UHGV virus genome: UHGV-2113617 | Reading direction: 5' to 3' (one strand) | Source: a virus | DNA length: 64,000 bases | Shown here: positions 4,030 through 55,649 of the stretch, piece by piece | Position numbering within the stretch: position 1 is the first letter of the stretch | Layout of the letters: every line of letters starts with the position of its first letter | Position numbers and translations under genes: made by a program | The notes under the pieces: model-generated | Told to the model about the DNA's origin: nothing | The model's input: only the letters and a program-made list of their open reading frames with translations | The model's database searches: none

Positions 4030-4968
4030 TTATTTAAATTGTTCAGTAACGTCTTCAACTACTTCGTATTGGCAGGTACGCATTTTAGCATCGTTGTAAT
4101 CAATCGGAATTGATACTACATCACGCGGATGCACTTTAACTTTTACAACTCGACTGGTTGAACTGCCAAAGTGACGAATATAAGATTTAGAACACACATG
4201 CAGACCACGAGAACAAGTTTGTGTATCATCGTCATTCACACGAGTACGTGGCATTTTAACTACTTTACCAGGGCTGTTATCAAAAGTATTTGAATGACAG
4301 TCAAAGTAATTGCTGCGAACTACTTTCCAAGCATAGAAGTAGCCGTCTTCTGTAATTTCAATATCGTTTGCTACCAAGAAATCAAAGAGTCGAGATACTG
4401 CTTTTTGGCTTGGGTTTTCCAGCAGATTTTCCAGGAATGGAAAATAAAATTCAAAGTTTTCACCTTTTTCCATCGAATCGAGAATACGATCAACTAAACC
4501 AGACCGCAATTCAATATTTTGATAGAACAGGCTTCCACCTTCAATTCGAACATCGCCGGAAATATATTTTTCAACAGCGCGACGAACATTAATTTTTTGT
4601 GCCGCTTCTTCCAATTTATCTGCAACAAGCAGATTAAGAATTTCCTGGAAGTTTGAATGAGTATTAGGAGTTGCGTTATAAGTTACGCCATCAACAGTAA
4701 TTGAAATGAATTTTTTAGATGCATTCCAAATAATGTCAGATTTAGCAACTGGAGCAATAACTGCATCACTCTTAACTTCAACTGTAATGTCACCGCTAAT
4801 GGTAACTTTGGAGCGCTCAGCTTCTTCAGCATTTTTCAAAACACGACGGATGGTATCAACCGATACACCTTGCCAATCAGCCAATTCCTGCTGAGTATAA
4901 TTACCACTTGAATACAGTTTGACAATTTCAGCTTGTTCGTTTTTGGTCAGGCATTTAATATTGTACAT
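4030..4968 (-). CDS. rIIB: rIIB membrane-associated protein
   Basis: 312 aa as T4 rIIB; ATG 4966-4968; N-term MYNIKCLTKNEQAEIVKLYSSGNYTQQELADWQG; adjacent to rIIA. Confidence 0.9.
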   Translation of the reverse strand: MYNIKCLTKNEQAEIVKLYSSGNYTQQELADWQGVSVDTIRRVLKNAEEAERSKVTISGDITVEVKSDAVIAPVAKSDIIWNASKKFISITVDGVTYNATPNTHSNFQEILNLLVADKLEEAAQKINVRRAVEKYISGDVRIEGGSLFYQNIELRSGLVDRILDSMEKGENFEFYFPFLENLLENPSQKAVSRLFDFLVANDIEITEDGYFYAWKVVRSNYFDCHSNTFDNSPGKVVKMPRTRVNDDDTQTCSRGLHVCSKSYIRHFGSSTSRVVKVKVHPRDVVSIPIDYNDAKMRTCQYEVVEDVTEQFK

Positions 4969-4979
4969 AATTTTCCTTA

Positions 4980-7157
4980 TTAGGCCGCAAGGGCCTTCAT
5001 AGTTTTAGCGATTTGGGAAACTTCATCATCACTTAAAGAATTGCGATAACCGATGAAGTCGGAAACAATACGGAATTTCTTGGTAAACTCAGCAACCATT
5101 TTATCACTGTTTTTTGAAGCATTATTTGATAATACATCAAAAAGATTAGTTACTGTCCAGATGTCATGACCGATGGTATCTTTTCCACCGTTGAAATATA
5201 CACCCTGTAATGAACTAACCATATTAGCGAGTCGTGTATATTCTTCAGAAACTTCATCTACACTGAAGTACTTCATCATAAAATCTAACTCAGGATACTT
5301 GATAATTTTATCAATATATCGTTTAGCTGAACTTGAATAACCTACATACTTATCATAATCTACATCATCAAAAGCATCTACATATAAATCACGCAAAGTT
5401 TCAAAAATACATTGGCACTGACCAAGTTCTTTTACCTTTTTCTGCAAAAGCGGACGAATAACATAAAATTCATTAATGCCAATAAGATTAGCCATACGAA
5501 TCAAAATATTCGTAGATGGATGACAAAGCGATGTAGTACCATCCATAGAGAAAATATCAGAACGATGCATGTATGCTACATAACCAGTAATTTCATCTGC
5601 TTCTGATGTGAGCGTAAACAATTCCTCTTTTTCCCAACGCCCGTCTTTAATTTCAAACTTAAATGCAGTGGCAGTTTTAGGACGAGGAGCTGTACTTTTT
5701 ACTGCCTTTGGAATATAACTTTTAACTAAAGCTTCAATTTCTGACAAATAATGAATGTTAACTTCATCACTTTCAAACATTGCCATAATATCAGGGAGTA
5801 AATCAATCTGTGATTCTACTTCCGGATTAATAAACAGAAGACGCTCATTGTGATGAATATTTAAGGTGTTATTAAATTCGCTATCATCTAATGCACGTGC
5901 TAATCCACGGACAATATTAACACGATTTTTAATATTATCAATAACAATATTAATTTTTGTCGTATTAATACCAAACAGACGATAACTTGATGCAACGGCT
6001 GAAGTTTCATGGCTTTGCTTAATGCGTTTCAGTCGAGGGTCAAGATTTACTTCATACACAACCCCTGCATTGCATAACTTACTGTCAGGTTCAAACATGC
6101 TCTGCATCTTCTTATATGACAGATTTTTAGTCGTGAATTTGACCGAATTACTAATCATATAATCTCGAGCAGAATATCCCATCTTCATCAATTCACGGTA
6201 TGTATGACGAGGAGATGTAGATTCTTTAAATCGTTTTACATCTTCATTAAATGCCTTCTCACTAAGCTCTTTAACACGCTCAATAATATTTTTACGAGTA
6301 CGATCATCTAGTGAAAGAGCTTCGCGTGATGGAGCAATATCAAGTGAACCCATTGGAAACTTAATGTAATTCACTTCATTGCGGATGCTTAACCAGTTAC
6401 GCTCTCTAATAACACCGTCAATAGGATAAACAATACCACCATAGATAGCGTACAATCCACCACGATCGGGCCAGTATCTTTCTGGATTTACGCCGTAATA
6501 GTCATCAAAATCAGGAAAATAATCAATTTCACGGTCAAGACCATTAATGATAGCCAAATCTTTGAATGGTCGCATGATATAAGAAACTTCATAAGCAAAG
6601 TTTCTAAAGTCTTTTTCTTCAACTGGAACTACGATTTCAATACCAGTTTTATCGTTTGGACCCATTTCTTTTACGAATGTAGGTTTAATCTGCGGACCGT
6701 CACCATCCATGTAAGCTACATAACCACGAATTTCACCTTTATGATATGAAGTAATACTAAATGTATCAGTATAACTAAACGGAGATTTAGAACCTAAACC
6801 AAATCCACCAATGAAATCGTTAGATTCAGCCTTAGATGAACTAAAGTATGAATTATACAACCCAGGAGAATTATCATCACCCTGAATATCAAAATCACTC
6901 ATACCTGGACCAAAATCTCGGCAAACAAATCGCGGATCTAATCGTCCTGGAACTTGTATGATAAATTTTTCAGGATTTCCATTAAGAGCATGGGCATCAA
7001 TCATGTTGGTAATCAATTCACGGACTACTGCGCGAATCTTGTTTGTATACAAATCAGATGACAGAATTTTAAATACTTTAGGAGATGCTGTGATGCTAAA
7101 TGCCTTTGATTTAGAACCGTTACCAAGAATAGTTTCTTTTTCAGTGGTGATAATCAT
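4980..7157 (-). CDS. rIIA: rIIA protein (GHKL ATPase-like N-terminal domain)
   Basis: 725 aa as T4 rIIA; ATG 7155-7157; N-term [29 protein letters not shown]. Confidence 0.9.
4982..4996 (-). other. hairpin at rIIA 3' end
   Basis: AGGCCGCAAGGGCCT. Confidence 0.4.
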
Positions 7158-47381: not shown

Positions 47382-47702
47382 TTATAGCGTAATCCATTCT
47401 CGTATTGTCTGAGTTACTACACGTTCACGGGGCTCGACTAGTTCAACAGTCGGAACTGCATAATACCAGTCAGAATGATAAGAACCTGAACGGCATTCAT
47501 TTACGGAAACATGTACATTATGTTTTGGACTAAAATAAACACACTGACGATATTGACATTTACCGTCTTGCACCCAGTCTTCTATTTCGACAGGTTTAAG
47601 ATAATCGGAAAAATCGAAATCATAGTTTTCTGAAAATGCATCATGGTCTTCAATGATTTCACTCAGAACTGCATCAACATCTAATTTATTTTCAATAGTC
47701 AT
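47382..47702 (-). CDS. hypothetical protein
   Basis: ORF track 106 aa. Confidence 0.5.
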   Translation of the reverse strand: MTIENKLDVDAVLSEIIEDHDAFSENYDFDFSDYLKPVEIEDWVQDGKCQYRQCVYFSPKHNVHVSVNECRSGSYHSDWYYAVPTVELVEPRERVVTQTIREWITL

Positions 47703-47712
47703 TTGTCACCAC

Positions 47713-47922
47713 TTAATTTCGCAATTTATTAAGTTCTTCATAATCAATCCAGGATTCTAATCCTGATGGCAAATCAGATTCAATTTCCCAAAGAAGCTCT
47801 TCAATTTTCTGAAGACGATCTAATTCTTCAGCTGGAATAGTAACCATTGACGGAGTTCTTGATACACTAATATCGTAAATCATATTTACCCCAGTTTGAC
47901 CATACAATCGCCATATTTCCAT
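47713..47922 (-). CDS. hypothetical protein
   Basis: ORF track 69 aa. Confidence 0.45.
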   Translation of the reverse strand: MEIWRLYGQTGVNMIYDISVSRTPSMVTIPAEELDRLQKIEELLWEIESDLPSGLESWIDYEELNKLRN

Positions 47923-48362: not shown

Positions 48363-48584
48363 TTATTCCTTAATTCCTAGTACTTGTTTAAAAGTCTCGT
48401 CGTAATCAAGACTTTGGCCCGTTTGTTCTTTATGTTTGTATATAATATCACTTACTTCTGATAGCATATTTTTATATGAACGAGTTAAAGCAGATTTAAG
48501 CACGCTGTATCTATCAGGAAATTTACCATGTTCATTATAATAAGCTATTGCTAATTCACGGACTGCCTTTTCAGCAGTCTCCAT
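48363..48584 (-). CDS. hypothetical protein (nrdC.1 position)
   Basis: ORF track 73 aa. Confidence 0.5.
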
Positions 48585-48593
48585 ATATATTCT

Positions 48594-48911
48594 TTACGCT
48601 TGGTCATTTTCTTCTCGGTTAAATCGGTGTTTGCAATGACGACATTTATATTCAAGCTCTGGTTTACGCCAGTTAATCAATTGGACCTGTTCAGTACCAC
48701 ATTTTGGGCAGTTCGGAACATTCTTAGAAGCCCTTTCGCGGCGTTCAACCATAACCATAATGGCATCCCAAGCAGGAGGTTTAAAGTCTAGATCGTCACA
48801 GCCATGAATCTTTCCACGCATTTCCAGATCGTCTTCTTCACCAGCCATAATGATTTTAATTAGACTGGAATTACTTGAAGCTGCAATATCTTCTAATAGA
48901 CGCTTTTTCAT
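48594..48911 (-). CDS. zinc-ribbon protein
   Basis: 105 aa; CPKCGTEQ...CRHCKH. Confidence 0.5.
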   Translation of the reverse strand: MKKRLLEDIAASSNSSLIKIIMAGEEDDLEMRGKIHGCDDLDFKPPAWDAIMVMVERRERASKNVPNCPKCGTEQVQLINWRKPELEYKCRHCKHRFNREENDQA

Positions 48912-49837
48912 TTCAATACCTCAATAGCATTACGTAAACCATTTGCTTTTGCATTAAGAGCTTTTAACAATTTGGTATGTTCGGCAATCTGGACTTCAAC
49001 TTCAATCAAACGAGCATTGAGATATTCACGTTCTTCGCTCAAGTTATCAATCTTTTCTACTTTAGGTTCTTTTACAACTGGCTTATATGTATTAGGGTTC
49101 TTCAGTTTAATTAGAATGCGTGAACTGTATAACATTGAACCATTATCTTCGGTTTCGTCATACATTTCCACTACGTCCATCATCTCCACCATCGTGCAGA
49201 GTTTATAAGACAACGAACGAATAGTTTTGTTGTGCTTATTAATTTCTCTAGCTGTCATGGTGCCGAGATTACGTGAGTAATAATAAGGAACCTGGATATT
49301 AATTAATACTGATGAACCACCTGGCTTGTGTGTTACTTCATCAGCAATAACCCAGTCCTTAACATGAACTGTATTTGTACGGTCATCGCCGGCGGTAAAT
49401 AGTTTACGAGCATGCTTAAAAAGCATATTCACTTGGTCATTGAATTGACAAGTGAATTTATCAGCAAATTTAGTTTCAGGAATGGTAGATAACCAATCAG
49501 CCAAATGGGTCTTTTTAACATCGTTAACAATAGTAAATTCAACCAAATCGGTTATAGATGTCGCAGATTTAATGAAGCTCGGCTTCATAAAGTTTTTAAT
49601 GTTATCACTAGCTACAGTAGAAGATAACAGACGAGAACGTTTAAACCATTGAAGCAAATTGCCTAACGAATGAGAATAAGCGTTTTGAGTATCTTTACAG
49701 ATATGATTTTCCTGGCCAACATATTGAAAGAAATCACGAAGAATATTATTGATTACTGCTCTGTGCCCAATCTGATAATTACGGTGTTTAGTAATAAGAC
49801 TATCAAAATAATCAATATAATGTTTACGAGTTTTCAT
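48908..49837 (-). CDS. hypothetical protein, paralog family member 1 (C-terminal coiled coil)
   Basis: 309 aa; ATG 49835-49837; N-term MKTRKHY; C-term LNARLIEVEVQIAEHTKLLKALNAKANGLRNAIEVLK. Confidence 0.6.
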   Translation of the reverse strand: MKTRKHYIDYFDSLITKHRNYQIGHRAVINNILRDFFQYVGQENHICKDTQNAYSHSLGNLLQWFKRSRLLSSTVASDNIKNFMKPSFIKSATSITDLVEFTIVNDVKKTHLADWLSTIPETKFADKFTCQFNDQVNMLFKHARKLFTAGDDRTNTVHVKDWVIADEVTHKPGGSSVLINIQVPYYYSRNLGTMTAREINKHNKTIRSLSYKLCTMVEMMDVVEMYDETEDNGSMLYSSRILIKLKNPNTYKPVVKEPKVEKIDNLSEEREYLNARLIEVEVQIAEHTKLLKALNAKANGLRNAIEVLK

Positions 49838-49889
49838 GTTCTTCTCACTTGGTTAATGATTTATACTCCGAGCCATCCTTGGCTTTAAA

Positions 49890-50891
49890 TTACTTAATTA
49901 ACTGTAAAGCTTGTTCAAGACGATCCAGGCGATTAACAGATTCTTCCCAAATCCTTTTAGCCTGTTCATATTCTTTCTGCGCTTTATTAGAAATTTCTAG
50001 AGCTTCTTTATAAGCTTTTTCTAATGCAATAACTTCTGGACGAATTTCTACCGATTCAGGTGAATCATCAAGATTATCCATTAGTTCCTCAAGGGTAGTT
50101 TCTTCTTTAGGAGTATTCACAATTTCTTCGCATTTTTGTTGGTAAATTTCTTTATCAGTTAGTGAATAAGCACACTTTACTTCACGAAGACTAACTACAA
50201 TTTTGTATCCTTCCCAACCGCACACATTCTTAAAAGGATAAGTATGAATATTTTCTACTGTTTCCATACAAAGTAGTGCAGTCTCTAATTGACGAGTTAT
50301 ATCACTAGCAATTGAGAAAAATTTATTAATGTTCTTTTGATTAGCTTCTGGTGTAAAAAATTCATAATTCACAAAAATAGCTGCTTTATTTTTATCAAGC
50401 TCATATTCTTTTATGATAATCATATCAGAAGCCCAAGGATGAATTTGACGATAATCGCCATAGCATAATTTAGAAGCTGATTTTAGAATTTGCTTTTTGA
50501 AAAGTCTGAAATTACTAATCCAACGACGAGTAAAAATATTCTCAGGGTCTTCTTTATTATTAAGATGATAAGAATTAACATCACCGAACCAATTATATCC
50601 TACTACATCTTTAGTTCGTTTAATTTCTTTCCCAAATTTACCAAGAATATCCTGATTAACTAAATATGAAAGAAGACGAGAACCTTTAAAGGTTTCCTTA
50701 ATATCATCTTTATCTTCGCGACTAGAAATTTTATGAACTTCATGAATAAATTTGCTGGAAGAAACAATGCTTACATCAATATTATTTAGCCATTGATTGA
50801 TAATGGAAATAACGCTATTCTGACTAGACATAAGTTTAACTTTATCATCAATAACACTATTGAATGATTTGATATATTCGTTACGAGTCAT
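49890..50891 (-). CDS. hypothetical protein, paralog family member 2
   Basis: 333 aa from ATG 50889-50891 with GAGGAG SD (track start lies inside the promoter); C-terminal coiled coil. Confidence 0.6.
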   Translation of the reverse strand: MTRNEYIKSFNSVIDDKVKLMSSQNSVISIINQWLNNIDVSIVSSSKFIHEVHKISSREDKDDIKETFKGSRLLSYLVNQDILGKFGKEIKRTKDVVGYNWFGDVNSYHLNNKEDPENIFTRRWISNFRLFKKQILKSASKLCYGDYRQIHPWASDMIIIKEYELDKNKAAIFVNYEFFTPEANQKNINKFFSIASDITRQLETALLCMETVENIHTYPFKNVCGWEGYKIVVSLREVKCAYSLTDKEIYQQKCEEIVNTPKEETTLEELMDNLDDSPESVEIRPEVIALEKAYKEALEISNKAQKEYEQAKRIWEESVNRLDRLEQALQLIK

Positions 50892-50918
50892 ATTAATCTC
50901 CTCAGTAAAAAGTAAGAA

Positions 50919-50949
50919 CATTATACCACATCCTTGTGGTAAAGTAAAC
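50919..50949 (-). promoter_or_regulatory. early promoter inside the paralog array
   Basis: GTTTACtttaccacaaggatgtggTATAAT; duplicate of the 7395-7426 promoter. Confidence 0.6.
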
Positions 50950-51980
50950 TAGTTCAGTGCATTTAGTGCATTGTTCAGTTTAGAACGTTGCTTCGTGAGA
51001 TTTTTGACTTTTTCTTGAGCTTTTTCTAGCGTCTTTTCAGCTTCTAGCACTTCATTAGTTGCTTTAACGAGTTCATCATCTACTGCCTTGATAGACTTCT
51101 CAATCGCATCTGCATGCCATTTTTCAACAGGTTTAAGACTCGGATTTTCAATAGGAAGAAAATTCACTTTATTGAATTTCCATGCATCCTTATTACCTGA
51201 ACTATACATCCAAAATTTAGGATCGTTTGATGAGTAATTGGATAAATTTAAATTTAAGTTATCTTGCACTTCCTGCTTTTTCTCTTGTGTGACTTCGTCC
51301 TTTCTCAAAAAATCGTATTTAAATGAAACGATCATATCAAGTTCATATGTTGTTGTATGTTCCCAATTTCGCTCAAAATGAGGTAAAATCTTAGACTGAA
51401 CAGCGGCAACAACATCCATATACTTAAATGCTTCTGTCAACTGCGATTTAAGGCATTCACAAATTGAAAGAGAATTTTTTGTATTAGGTTTAAAGCTAAT
51501 TCGTGCAGTTCTATTATTTTCTTTTAATGGTCTTACTTCCATCTGAAGAGTATAACCATCAAATTTCAGATTCTTTAAGTTAATATCAGAACCTTTTAAT
51601 CGACTCGCAGTTGATAAAATTTGCTTTAATTGTCTACGGAACAGAGCAATAAATCTCCATTCAATACGATAATGATTTGGATTGAAAAATCCAGATGATA
51701 AATCGACCTTACTTTGACCAACGCCTTGAACAAATAGAGGATTTTTATAATCAATAGTTTTACAGAAATCGGTGAGCTGCTCACGAGCCGTCATTTGTGT
51801 AATATACCCTGCTTTACTAAAATTACGCACCCATTCACTACTGCTATTCTTATACTTAAAGTGATGAATAGCATGATTAACTTTATCAGGGTCTAAATTA
51901 TTTTCACACAAAAATGTCATAACATCACGAGTATAGCTGGCTCTACGAACTATATCTTCAATTTGAGAACGAGTTTTCAT
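50949..51980 (-). CDS. hypothetical protein, paralog family member 3
   Basis: 343 aa; ATG 51978-51980; N-term MKTRSQIEDI; C-terminal coiled coil. Confidence 0.6.
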   Translation of the reverse strand: MKTRSQIEDIVRRASYTRDVMTFLCENNLDPDKVNHAIHHFKYKNSSSEWVRNFSKAGYITQMTAREQLTDFCKTIDYKNPLFVQGVGQSKVDLSSGFFNPNHYRIEWRFIALFRRQLKQILSTASRLKGSDINLKNLKFDGYTLQMEVRPLKENNRTARISFKPNTKNSLSICECLKSQLTEAFKYMDVVAAVQSKILPHFERNWEHTTTYELDMIVSFKYDFLRKDEVTQEKKQEVQDNLNLNLSNYSSNDPKFWMYSSGNKDAWKFNKVNFLPIENPSLKPVEKWHADAIEKSIKAVDDELVKATNEVLEAEKTLEKAQEKVKNLTKQRSKLNNALNALN

Positions 51981-51988
51981 GGTATTCC

Positions 51989-52921
51989 TTAAGATTTAAG
52001 TAAATCAACAATTTTAATTAACTTTTCACGCTCAGATTTAGCTTTACTACTCAATCCAGATAGTCTGAAAATTTCATCGTCATACTGTTGAATAGAAATA
52101 TTCAGCTCTTCAATCTGCTTATTAAAATAATCAATTTGTTCAGAATGTTTTTCGTTACTACGAACCAGTACAGGTTTTGTAGGCAATTTAGTTGAACTGG
52201 ATTCATCCGGGCGATAAATTAAAATACAACTTGAACCAATAGGGCATTTAGCACCAGATGAATATTCTAGTGTTCCAGCTTCTTTTAAAACTTCAAAAGC
52301 TAAACAGAGATGATGACCCATATTGACATAATCTGTAGAGCGAGCTCTGATGTAATAATCATCTCCACGAATACTAAATTTAAAGCATTTAAGGTCTTCT
52401 GTATTATTGGTCTTAAAAATCATTTGTTTATCTAGACCTTTAGCTAATCGAGCGCCCAATGCTAATAATCGTCGTTGATTTTCCCACAAATCCGCAATCA
52501 TTTGGTCAAATGATAATTTCGGCATTAATCGACCATAAAGGTCATATCCTTTATTATAATTACGAAGGATTTCACTCGCATTAATGCGAGACAACGCTCC
52601 AATTTTATTAAGGGCTTTCATAATGCGATTAGATAAACTCATTCCAGACCCATTTGTTCGCTGTAGATGTTTTTCTAATCCAAACCCAATATCAACTTTA
52701 AATTTATCTAAAATTTCGGCATGAACATCTCTGTCAATAACGTTCAAATTCAGAGTTGGGTTAAATCTATGAAAAAATTTATCTGGCTCTCCACGACGAA
52801 ATACAGTCCATTCATTCATCATTTTTTTATTAACTAAAGATTTAATTACTGTATTGACATTATTAATTACTACTGACATATTTTCCTCACTCAATTTCAA
52901 TTTTAATTTTACTAAATACAC
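51989..52921 (-). CDS. hypothetical protein, paralog family member 4
   Basis: ORF track 310 aa; C-terminal coiled coil IEELNISIQQYDDEIFRL... Confidence 0.55.
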   Translation of the reverse strand: MYLVKLKLKLSEENMSVVINNVNTVIKSLVNKKMMNEWTVFRRGEPDKFFHRFNPTLNLNVIDRDVHAEILDKFKVDIGFGLEKHLQRTNGSGMSLSNRIMKALNKIGALSRINASEILRNYNKGYDLYGRLMPKLSFDQMIADLWENQRRLLALGARLAKGLDKQMIFKTNNTEDLKCFKFSIRGDDYYIRARSTDYVNMGHHLCLAFEVLKEAGTLEYSSGAKCPIGSSCILIYRPDESSSTKLPTKPVLVRSNEKHSEQIDYFNKQIEELNISIQQYDDEIFRLSGLSSKAKSEREKLIKIVDLLKS

Positions 52922-53355: not shown

Positions 53356-53883
53356 TTATGCGAGTACCGTCTTTAACCGTTCTTCAAACTTCCGAAGAGT
53401 ATTTTGGCGTTCAGCTCTTTGCTTTTTGTAAGTTTCAATACGCTCTGAAATGAGAGAGTATCGTTCATTTACTGATTCTTTCATAAAATCAGGAATTTCA
53501 CGAGAAGCTTTAATCTCGTCAAATTTATCAATAACAGCTTGCTCTTCAGCAATTAAGTTATCATACATTAAAATATCTTTCTTGATGAACTCAATATCTT
53601 CTTGAGTTACACGAGACATTTTAGATGCTTTATCATTTTTGTACTGTTCGTTAGTATCACGAGACCAGTGTAATGTACGATTTTTATTCGTATTCTTGTA
53701 AATTTCTACAATACCGATCTCATCAATAATAACGATCCAATTCCAACGGGATTTGTAAATTTGTCCTCCATCAACAGTGATTTCACCTCCGATTGAGATG
53801 TCGTTAAAGAACTTGCTTTGCGCTTCAGATTTAAATTTGCCATCGTTGTAATTTACCAAGTTGAAAATATCTTTAGCGTTCAT
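53356..53883 (-). CDS. hypothetical protein
   Basis: 175 aa; ATG 53881-53883 after CGGAGGAACAGAAA; early promoter upstream. Confidence 0.55.
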   Translation of the reverse strand: MNAKDIFNLVNYNDGKFKSEAQSKFFNDISIGGEITVDGGQIYKSRWNWIVIIDEIGIVEIYKNTNKNRTLHWSRDTNEQYKNDKASKMSRVTQEDIEFIKKDILMYDNLIAEEQAVIDKFDEIKASREIPDFMKESVNERYSLISERIETYKKQRAERQNTLRKFEERLKTVLA

Positions 53884-54347: not shown

Positions 54348-55334
54348 TTATTTCAGAAGAGTAACCTCAGCAATTTCTTCCCAACCGTTTTTGTCGGTCA
54401 TAATAAAGTCAGCAAGATAAAGAGCAGTACGCAGTGAAACATTGCGTAAACGATTAACATTAACTTTCATCCATGATAATGCTTTATAAGTTTCTTCATC
54501 AGAAAGACCGCGCTTTTGCATCATGTCAGTTGAAAGAATAACATCTTCAACCCTGACCATAATTTCTTCATTAGTGTGAACACCCAAATCTAAATAAACT
54601 GAGCGGGACACTAATGCTTGTAAATGTGGAGCAAGTTTAGTACCACGGTCTAATTCGCGGTCAATGTCAACGTTTGTGATAAAAACAATCGTTCCTTTAA
54701 ATTCAAACTCACGGTCAATGCCTTTTTCTTCTAAGTAAGAAGATGCAGTGCTCCAGCAGACTTTACGGGTCTCTCCAGTGTCCAGAGCAGCTTTTAGAAG
54801 ATTAAGAATGTCCATATCAGAGAAAACATCCACATCATCAATCAAAAGGACAGAATTCTCTTCACGATTATTCCAAAGCTGTTCATAAAGACCAATACCA
54901 GAGATTTTACCGTTAATGCTTTTATATTCAATGTATCCATTATCATTTGCTTTATTTAAAGCTTTATCTAAAGAATACGTTTTACCAATACCTGCTGCGC
55001 CAGAGATAATCAATGAACGAATATTTCCATTAATAATACCATTCGTCATCATTCCCATAACATTAAATCTTTTATTAATGCGGGTTTTCATATCTTCATA
55101 TGATTCTTTAACTTCTTCAACTTTTACACCATCATATGAAATATCTGATTTGTAAACCCAAACACCGCGACGTTTACCGTCAATTTCAACAAAAACTTTA
55201 CCATCTCCTTGTGCATCTACCGGAGCATTATCTGGGAACCATTCGCCTAAGAGCTCAAAAGTTCCAGAGATTTCTTTACCGAAGTAGATACCCTTATTGA
55301 TAGTTACAGTTTTCATTTTATTCTCCAATTTCAC
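54348..55334 (-). CDS. P-loop ATPase (AAA-like)
   Basis: 328 aa; Walker A GAAGIGKTYS, Walker B-like VLLIDDVD. Confidence 0.65.
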   Translation of the reverse strand: MKLENKMKTVTINKGIYFGKEISGTFELLGEWFPDNAPVDAQGDGKVFVEIDGKRRGVWVYKSDISYDGVKVEEVKESYEDMKTRINKRFNVMGMMTNGIINGNIRSLIISGAAGIGKTYSLDKALNKANDNGYIEYKSINGKISGIGLYEQLWNNREENSVLLIDDVDVFSDMDILNLLKAALDTGETRKVCWSTASSYLEEKGIDREFEFKGTIVFITNVDIDRELDRGTKLAPHLQALVSRSVYLDLGVHTNEEIMVRVEDVILSTDMMQKRGLSDEETYKALSWMKVNVNRLRNVSLRTALYLADFIMTDKNGWEEIAEVTLLK

Positions 55335-55385: not shown

Positions 55386-55649
55386 TTATTTTAATGTTCG
55401 CCAAATTTTTACTGCTTCGCGACGAGATACTTCTACAGCTCCAAGTTCTACGGCTTTTTGGCGGTGGCGCGCGTGTAAGTCATAATGTTTAATGCGTTTA
55501 TCTTGAAACCAAGAGCGTTTCATTCCTATTGCTTCTGCCATTTCATGAAGCTCTTCAATATCTCCATCAGTGAACATATGACAATTTTTAGTTGGATGAC
55601 CGCGAAGTTTCCATCCATGATTCATTAAAACATCTACGTAAACTGTCAT
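55386..55649 (-). CDS. hypothetical protein
   Basis: ORF track 87 aa. Confidence 0.5.
   Translation of the reverse strand: MTVYVDVLMNHGWKLRGHPTKNCHMFTDGDIEELHEMAEAIGMKRSWFQDKRIKHYDLHARHRQKAVELGAVEVSRREAVKIWRTLK

Follow-up and report, generated by a model that had tools for sequence, protein, structure and literature searches.

Tandem nrdC genes of a T-even phage encode predicted diverged paralogs with coiled-coil tails, an anti-Dsr1 orthologue and three candidate inhibitors of bacterial defence

T4 is the best-studied phage, and about half of its genes are still without a function. Here we describe an array of four consecutive minus-strand open reading frames (ORFs), nrdC.3, nrdC.4, nrdC.5 and nrdC.6, in a stretch of 64,000 nucleotides of the virus genome UHGV-2113617, hereafter the window, which is a Tequatrovirus (T4/T2/T6-like, T-even) genome. 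The closest described protein is T4 NrdC.5. A T4 deletion mutant lost plating on ECOR17, and deletion of dsr1 in ECOR17 restored it (PMC9391042, eLife 2022). Cloned dsr1, which encodes a SIR2-domain defence protein, shielded MG1655 from the T4 deletion mutant, and T4 nrdC.5, described as an early gene, restored infection when supplied alone in trans (PMC9391042). According to a 2026 preprint, the TPR sensor of Dsr1 is common to Avs7 and is triggered by the phage major capsid protein, the one trigger of EcDsr1 toxicity that a co-expression screen turned up (PMC12803255).

Other phage inhibitors resemble the array in part. DSAD1 inhibits DSR2, a SIR2 defence protein with a sensor for a structural protein of the phage (PMC10981675, PMC11087589), and is, by analogy, the best mechanistic precedent for binding-type inhibition. 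T4 Ip1, Ip2 and Ip3 show that a single phage can carry several dispensable inhibitors, each acting against a different GmrSD type IV restriction variant (PMC12373910), and their loci are hypervariable among T-even phages. Unlike the products of nrdC.3–6, which are homologous to each other, would be made early from the genome and have a predicted C-terminal coiled coil, Ip1–3 are apparently non-homologous and are packaged and injected via an N-terminal capsid-targeting sequence (PMC12373910). T4 NrdC.1, an inhibitor of Septu (bioRxiv 10.1101/2025.11.20.689424), T6 Gp49.2, an inhibitor of OLD (PMC13096335), and the dmd–tifA–adfA anti-toxin island are similar in that they are early accessory genes, clustered and variable, each directed against one defence system, but they are unrelated to the array in sequence, much smaller (64–80 amino acids), mutually non-paralogous and without a coiled-coil tail. 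Tail terminator or tail completion proteins (lambda gpU-like, DUF3168) and the RNA polymerase alpha N-terminal/Rpb11-like fold have also been named among the closest known systems.

In DNA, 660 phage records match the 4-kb array segment with 80–97% identity, 463 of them over 80% or more of its length. The array is flanked by endonuclease VII, pin, 49.1, 49.2, nrdC, nrdC.1 and nrdC.2 at one end and by nrdC.7, nrdC.8, nrdC.9 and nrdC.10 at the other. An earlier reading of the letters alone, hereafter the original prediction, had described four consecutive minus-strand ORFs as diverged tandem paralogs and proposed a comparison with the nrdC.x proteins of T4. The four ORFs are present, and synteny with annotated T2, T6, T4 and RB69 records identifies them as nrdC.3–nrdC.6, with protein identities of 60–98% to their T2, T4 and T6 counterparts. 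The third ORF, nrdC.5 (343 amino acids, 50949–51980, minus strand), lies between nrdC.6 and nrdC.4, the same gene order as in T4, T2 and T6. It matches Pfam DUF7235 (PF23882) over profile positions 1–307 of 307 (E = 3.6e-124, 414.6 bits against a cut-off of 30), and is 92.8% identical to NrdC.5 of T4 strain 147 over residues 1–334 and 90% identical to those of T2 and T6. By sequence and gene order, it is an orthologue of the T4 anti-Dsr1 gene. The other three ORFs appear as distant paralogs of NrdC.5 that differ from it in belonging to other families (PF26897 and PF26899; phrog_1435 and phrog_2257), with bodies that have diverged past pairwise recognition; PF23882 is matched by nrdC.5 alone of the four.

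These three ORFs are also on the minus strand. nrdC.3 (309 amino acids, 48908–49837), placed by synteny with the annotated T2 and RB69 nrdC.3, and nrdC.4 (333 amino acids, 49890–50891) both match phrog_1435 along their full length (E = 1.5e-114 and 1.3e-164, respectively). nrdC.4 starts at the ATG at 50891 behind a GAGGAG, an alternative 343-amino-acid reading would begin inside the −10 box of a promoter described below, and a PF26897 hit is precomputed for all of its homologues. nrdC.6 (51989–52879) matches phrog_2257 along its full length (E = 2.5e-150), and its homologues carry PF26899. It had been taken as a 310-amino-acid ORF reaching 52921; it is in fact 296 amino acids long and starts at the ATG at 52879. 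A GTG start at 52921 would overlap nrdC.7, and the homologues, 280–296 amino acids long, all begin MSVVINN or MSQAIN. The proposed relatedness of the N-termini holds for nrdC.3, nrdC.4 and nrdC.5, which begin MKTRKHY, MTRNEYI and MKTRSQI and have M(K)TR-x-x-[YI] in common, but not for nrdC.6, which begins MSVVINN and is without this motif.

Most pairwise BLASTP comparisons among the four proteins are non-significant, and the sole pair detected is nrdC.3 and nrdC.4 (25% identity over 226 amino acids, E = 6e-6). We therefore rely on family profiles, built from 225 database homologues and three distant nrdC.5 relatives. The latter come from a HMMER search of 1.84 billion representatives with the nrdC.5 profile, which returned these 3 full-length distant homologues only and no cellular relatives. 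HHalign relates nrdC.3 to nrdC.4 with a probability of 98.3% (E = 2e-14), in a match that ends near residue 220, outside the coiled coil. nrdC.4 is related to nrdC.5 at 93.3% (E = 3e-7); this match takes in 248 columns, the majority of which fall outside the coiled coil, starts at residue 64 and extends into the tail. The same alignment pairs RRWISNFRLFKKQILKSASKL (nrdC.4 residues 121–141) with EWRFIALFRRQLKQILSTASRL (nrdC.5 residues 107–128), the central basic segment that the original prediction had singled out. Similarity beyond composition is thus found for nrdC.3–nrdC.4 and nrdC.4–nrdC.5, and the weak alignments of nrdC.6, not significant by sequence, are collinear with structural equivalences. 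In a 16-sequence alignment, all four families share collinear motifs: one helix closes with A-x-[KR]-L-x(1-3)-G-x-D, another further along reads L-x-x-x-L-x-x-A-x-x-x-[ML]-x-x-V, and P-x5-E-K-x-[HY] leads into the tail. We found no DNA repeats longer than 26 nucleotides between the genes, which indicates that the duplications are old and rules out recent gene conversion between the paralogs.

AlphaFold2 (AF2) monomer models of nrdC.4 and nrdC.6, with predicted local distance difference test scores of 83 and 76, respectively, show the same order of elements, in keeping with the proposed kinship: a helical N-terminal region, a helix-break-helix, two strands, a helix, two strands, a low-confidence linker and a long C-terminal helix. 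In the nrdC.4 model, the helical N-domain spans residues 1–84, the alpha/beta core residues 88–235 and the long helix residues 285–332; the C-terminal helices of the nrdC.6 model span residues 242–272 and 278–295. Foldseek searches of predicted viral structures match the nrdC.4 model to nrdC.3 of Yersinia phage fPS-65 (E = 1e-8) and to nrdC.6 of phage JS10 (E = 3e-5, probability 1.0). The nrdC.4 and nrdC.6 models both match A0A7G3KGN9, A0A0A0PZG4, A0A345AUV5, E5E4A2 and E5EPQ6 of the Straboviridae at E = 1e-4 to 1e-7, and these shared matches are uncharacterised proteins of 300–335 amino acids from T4-like phages of Enterobacter, Pectobacterium and Acinetobacter. Taken together, the profiles and models place the four ORFs as true, deeply diverged, ancient tandem paralogs, with nrdC.6 placed among them mainly by its predicted structure. 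The family is confined to T4-like phages (Straboviridae), spanning many hosts. In BFVD, E5E4A1 and E5E4A2 of Acinetobacter phage Acj61, which have consecutive accession numbers, both match the nrdC.4 model. This pair suggests that tandem arrays of the nrdC.3–6 family may also occur far outside the coliphages.

All four proteins end in 7–8 uninterrupted heptads, against the minimum of 4 that we set for a coiled coil, with the same register when counted from ...L-x-x-[AI]-[ILV]-x-x-L-K, so that the charged heptad-like C-terminal stretch first noticed by eye is borne out by a shuffle test and, for nrdC.4 and nrdC.6, by long helices in the models. The tail scores are reached by at most 7 of 2000 shuffles. 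The nrdC.5 heptad helix (last ~56 amino acids, 50949–51119) has the top score of the 157 window ORFs of at least 60 amino acids and is reached by 0/2000 shuffles. That of nrdC.3 (last ~50 amino acids, 48908–49060) keeps a continuous a/d register (1/2000), that of nrdC.4 (residues 285–333, 49890–50039) is a single 48-residue helix in the AF2 model (7/2000), and that of nrdC.6 (residues 242–296, 51989–52156) is modelled as helices with a kink at LSGLS (1/2000); all lie on the minus strand. The tails are family-specific in sequence and, in every family, more conserved than the body. Tail and body identities are 0.63 versus 0.44 among distant nrdC.4 members, 0.64 versus 0.34 among distant nrdC.5 members and 0.65 versus 0.38 among 89 distant nrdC.6 members.

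The neighbouring nrdC.8 (175 amino acids, 53356–53883, minus strand) ends in a similar heptad helix, ...LRKFEERLKTVLA, which ranks 4th of the 157 ORFs (8/2000 shuffles); together, the four proteins and nrdC.8 take ranks 1, 3, 4, 5 and 7. nrdC.8 is highly conserved, at 97–98% in T2, T4 and T6 and 82% in RB69. We rejected it as a fifth paralog, as HHalign relates it to nrdC.3–6 at 1.2% at most and the tail feature alone is common to them.

The array was proposed to be hypervariable and accessory, and both parts hold: T4 stays viable when it loses the nrdC.1–6 block (PMC9825161), the array genes are dispensable on laboratory hosts, and natural phages carry 1 to 4 members, with deletions, in-frame hybrids and cassette-like alleles. 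nrdC.3, carried by 654 phage records, falls into allele classes of approximately 95%, 75% and 60% identity. Between alleles, the first 30 and last 30–60 residues are 87–100% identical (the last 30 are 100% identical between allele classes), whereas the central 180 residues are 37–57% identical; in DNA, the ends (first and last 90 nucleotides) are 96–100% and the centre 51–60% identical, a mosaic seen on comparison of the window gene with that of T6 (6001–6927 of its segment). The window allele is nearer to that of RB69 (Mosigvirus, 75% amino acid identity) than to those of T4, T2 and T6 (60%). This pattern suggests cassette-like exchange. In Salmonella phage Manna, nrdC.5 and most of nrdC.4 are deleted, and Manna_094 (4215–5252 of the Manna segment) is an intact 345-amino-acid in-frame hybrid in which nrdC.6 residues 1 to ~262 pass, at the microhomology (D/E)EI, into the C-terminal 83 residues of nrdC.4. 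In ACG-C40, the nrdC.5 N-terminus is fused out of frame to the nrdC.3 tail (4805–5216 of its segment) and nrdC.6 is the sole intact member, and in Pinarejo just the last 47 codons of nrdC.6 are left, unannotated (5001–5141 of its segment). In the T2 record, nrdC.4 and nrdC.6 appear as split ORFs, and tblastn recovers T2 nrdC.4 in three pieces; nrdC.4 of T4 strain 147 matches in two reading frames. Full-length ORFs are nonetheless kept in 652 of 654 records for nrdC.3, 550 of 554 for nrdC.4 and 696 of 742 for nrdC.6. Dhakavirus C6 has nrdC.6-, nrdC.5- and nrdC.4-type genes in the same order, and the array of RB69 consists of nrdC.6, an nrdC.5-like gene that has decayed, and nrdC.3. Such turnover is what would be expected for genes under fluctuating host-dependent selection.

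The nrdC.6 of Shigella phage Sf25 (378 amino acids) contains an internal tandem duplication of ~83 residues (IRAHSTDYVNMGHH...KQIEEL repeated). Another protein, P0231 (173 amino acids), joins a foreign N-domain to an exact nrdC.5 tail. We do not use it as a domain swap, as it is probably an assembly chimera: it lies on a single 803-bp ENA metagenome contig, whose first ~480 nucleotides are G+C-richer by eye and in which the nrdC.4 promoter and start follow.

The array sits in the leftward early region, which has matches to T4-early-type promoters, one of them inside the array. This promoter, of the T4-early sigma-70 type, lies at 50920–50948 on the minus strand, directly past the nrdC.5 stop codon and ~30 nucleotides ahead of the nrdC.4 ribosome-binding site. 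It reads GTTTACT-17 nt-TGgTATAAT, with 10 of 12 consensus positions and an extended −10, and both hexamers are intact in T2, T4, T6 and Pinarejo. An early promoter had been placed here by the original prediction, with the suggestion that members may be separately transcribed; the conserved consensus is consistent with that suggestion. A 7-bp inverted repeat, TACCACA-AGGA-TGTGGTA (50924–50941, minus strand), fills the promoter spacer after the nrdC.5 stop. It was listed as terminator-like by a scan, but its T-run is poor, and it could affect read-through or promoter use.

Next to the array, 0.3–1.2 kb downstream, are homologues of the two inhibitors NrdC.1 and Gp49.2. The ORF at 48363–48584 (minus strand) is 100% identical to T4 NrdC.1, and that at 47713–47922 (minus strand) is 97% identical to T6 EcT6_00080, which is Gp49.2 by its place in the T6 gene order. 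The region surrounding the array is an anti-defence island. The name 49.2 refers to two T-even genes, both found in this phage: the T4-type 49.2, unrelated to T6 Gp49.2, is at 47382–47702.

We favour the reading, to which we give a probability of roughly 0.55, that nrdC.3–6 are ancient tandem paralogs acting as early, dispensable, binding-type inhibitors of bacterial defence proteins with coiled-coil tails. Each protein would begin with a helical N-terminal region, continue with an alpha/beta core and close, after a flexible linker, with 7–8 C-terminal amphipathic heptads, and would act as a stoichiometric, non-enzymatic inhibitor. The fast-evolving body would recognise a particular defence protein, and the conserved C-terminal helix would oligomerise the inhibitor as a coiled coil, giving it avidity for oligomeric immune proteins. 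In this scheme, nrdC.5 would neutralise Dsr1, in which a SIR2 NADase is joined to a TPR sensor of the major capsid protein, most likely by binding Dsr1 before the late capsid protein appears. nrdC.3, nrdC.4 and nrdC.6 would act likewise on other defence proteins or on other variants of Dsr1/Avs7-type sensors. They are good candidate inhibitors of other bacterial defences because their paralog nrdC.5 is known to switch off Dsr1, and by analogy with Ip1–3 and the GmrSD variants (PMC12373910) their targets probably differ. The host-interaction or anti-defence role envisaged by the original prediction thus stands for nrdC.5, via its T4 orthologue and Dsr1, and fits the neighbouring NrdC.1 and Gp49.2; for nrdC.3, nrdC.4 and nrdC.6 we infer it, as we do direct binding and oligomerisation.

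Several observations weigh against this reading. The functional evidence concerns nrdC.5 and consists of genetic complementation by the T4 protein. The sequence comparison of nrdC.6 with a merged profile of the other three by HHalign is not significant (27%, best P = 7e-4), and the TM-scores behind its membership, taken from predicted structures, are just 0.4–0.5. Its conserved polar motifs NKGYDLYGR and NQRRLLALGARLA-G-DKQM-FKTN could equally mark an active or ligand-binding site. The models, being of monomers, show the long C-terminal helix as one chain, and part of the tail conservation may reflect recombination, not selection, because the last 90 nucleotides of nrdC.3 are 100% identical in DNA between divergent alleles. 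The frequent loss or breakage of members, as in T2, T4 strain 147, ACG-C40 and Pinarejo, would also fit proteins that do little or nothing on many hosts.

These points bear on the alternatives to different degrees. The one that survives best, possible though clearly less probable than the favoured reading, is that nrdC.5 is the sole anti-defence protein and that the others are duplicates with an unrelated role or no current one, such as host take-over accessories or decaying copies. The open-access literature searched yields functional data for nrdC.5 only and none for nrdC.3, nrdC.4 or nrdC.6, and searches on anti-Dsr1, DUF7235 and the other nrdC.x names gave nothing beyond the papers cited here. 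The frequent losses, frameshifts and remnants in natural phages and the deletability of the whole block also fit this alternative, but it explains less well why full-length ORFs are kept in most records, why the family-specific motifs and tails are conserved across genera and why the gene order is the same in Dhakavirus and Mosigvirus, and the array adjoins proven anti-defence genes.

A second alternative, which we regard as improbable, is that the four proteins assemble into a single hetero-oligomer through their similar C-terminal helices and work as one machine instead of four separate inhibitors. The genes lie side by side in one orientation, their products share the heptad register from the C-terminus and the similar endings L-x-x-A/I-[ILV]-x-x-L-K, and the tail of the adjacent nrdC.8 is of this kind too. 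We disfavour such a complex because nrdC.5 alone in trans rescues the Dsr1 phenotype and because natural phages carry one, two or three members in differing combinations; moreover, the tails are family-specific in sequence, and the internal promoter would uncouple nrdC.4 and nrdC.3 from nrdC.6 and nrdC.5.

Equally doubtful is the proposal that the proteins are enzymes or small-molecule binders, of NAD+ or its products for example, that counter defence metabolically. Dsr1 is an NAD+-depleting system, phages are known to counter such systems by metabolic routes (NARP pathways), and nrdC.6 has invariant polar clusters. No match to an enzyme family emerged by sequence or fold, however, no polar residue set is kept across the four families except one K/R and one D at a helix end, and the bodies evolve fast, unlike metabolic enzymes. 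The absence of a visible catalytic motif, noted at the outset, agrees with scans of the four proteins against Pfam, NCBIfam and PADLOC, which gave no functional family, just DUF7235 and weak coiled-coil noise (the sole PADLOC hit being a weak coiled-coil match of nrdC.4 to BrxC, E = 0.002, 14 bits). Profile searches of all Protein Data Bank (PDB) sequences likewise found no relatives, the hits (APC6 TPR at E > 0.2, designed helical repeats) being at noise level; homology to housekeeping proteins, which would have told against a set of accessory paralogs, was absent from these searches.

The weakest alternative, that the four ORFs are not paralogs and resemble each other through coiled-coil composition and chance, draws on the non-significant BLASTP comparisons, the HHalign result for nrdC.6 and the lack of DNA-level repeats, but is very improbable in view of the 93–98% profile matches of nrdC.3–nrdC.4 and nrdC.4–nrdC.5, which lie mostly or entirely outside the coiled coil, the collinearity of the nrdC.6 alignments with the structural equivalences and the reciprocal, shared Foldseek hits; we reject chance as the source of the similarity for the other three proteins and consider it unlikely for nrdC.6.

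The binding-type inhibitors of the favoured reading may tentatively be seen on a larger scale. nrdC.3–6 and their relatives in T4-like phages of Acinetobacter, Erwinia, Serratia, Klebsiella and other hosts could form a modular anti-defence platform, in which a coiled-coil handle for oligomerisation or docking is combined with exchangeable sensor-recognising bodies, although we hold this to be a good deal less likely than the inhibitor role itself. New specificities could arise by recombination within the array, to which the Manna hybrid of nrdC.6 body and nrdC.4 tail and the cassette-like nrdC.3 alleles point, and the targets may include different Dsr1/Avs7-type TPR sensors that detect capsid protein. 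If so, the array would be a phage counterpart of domain shuffling in bacterial immune receptors.

The genes themselves are long-annotated T-even ORFs and the anti-defence role of nrdC.5 is published. What appears to be new is the placement of all four in one superfamily, against three families in current PHROG and Pfam, as well as the reach of this superfamily across T4-like phages of many hosts, and its combination of a variable body with a conserved coiled-coil tail, including natural hybrids. Distant paralogy to the Dsr1 inhibitor turns three orphan genes into specific, testable anti-defence candidates and defines a family with a recognisable architecture. As the Dsr1 sensor is reported to recognise the major capsid protein and is common to Avs7, this family could show how phages blind capsid-sensing immunity, and it could help to predict the host range of therapeutic T4-like phages.

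The analysis also corrects a widespread mis-annotation. Many phage records call nrdC.2 through nrdC.11 'thioredoxin', and one T6 record gives tail and baseplate names. We reject the thioredoxin/glutaredoxin label for the four proteins, which have no Pfam or NCBIfam thioredoxin hit and no CxxC, and whose nrdC.4 and nrdC.6 models are not thioredoxin folds; it appears to have been carried over from the neighbouring nrdC gene. The thioredoxin, tail and baseplate names are annotation carry-overs, unsupported by sequence or predicted fold.

Beyond nrdC.9, nrdC.10 (54348–55334, minus strand) contains the Walker A motif GAAGIGKT and is probably a P-loop/AAA-type ATPase. Past it lies an ORF of 87 amino acids (55386–55649, minus strand), at which position the phage ACG-C40 record has a 'DUF4031 domain-containing protein' of the same length.

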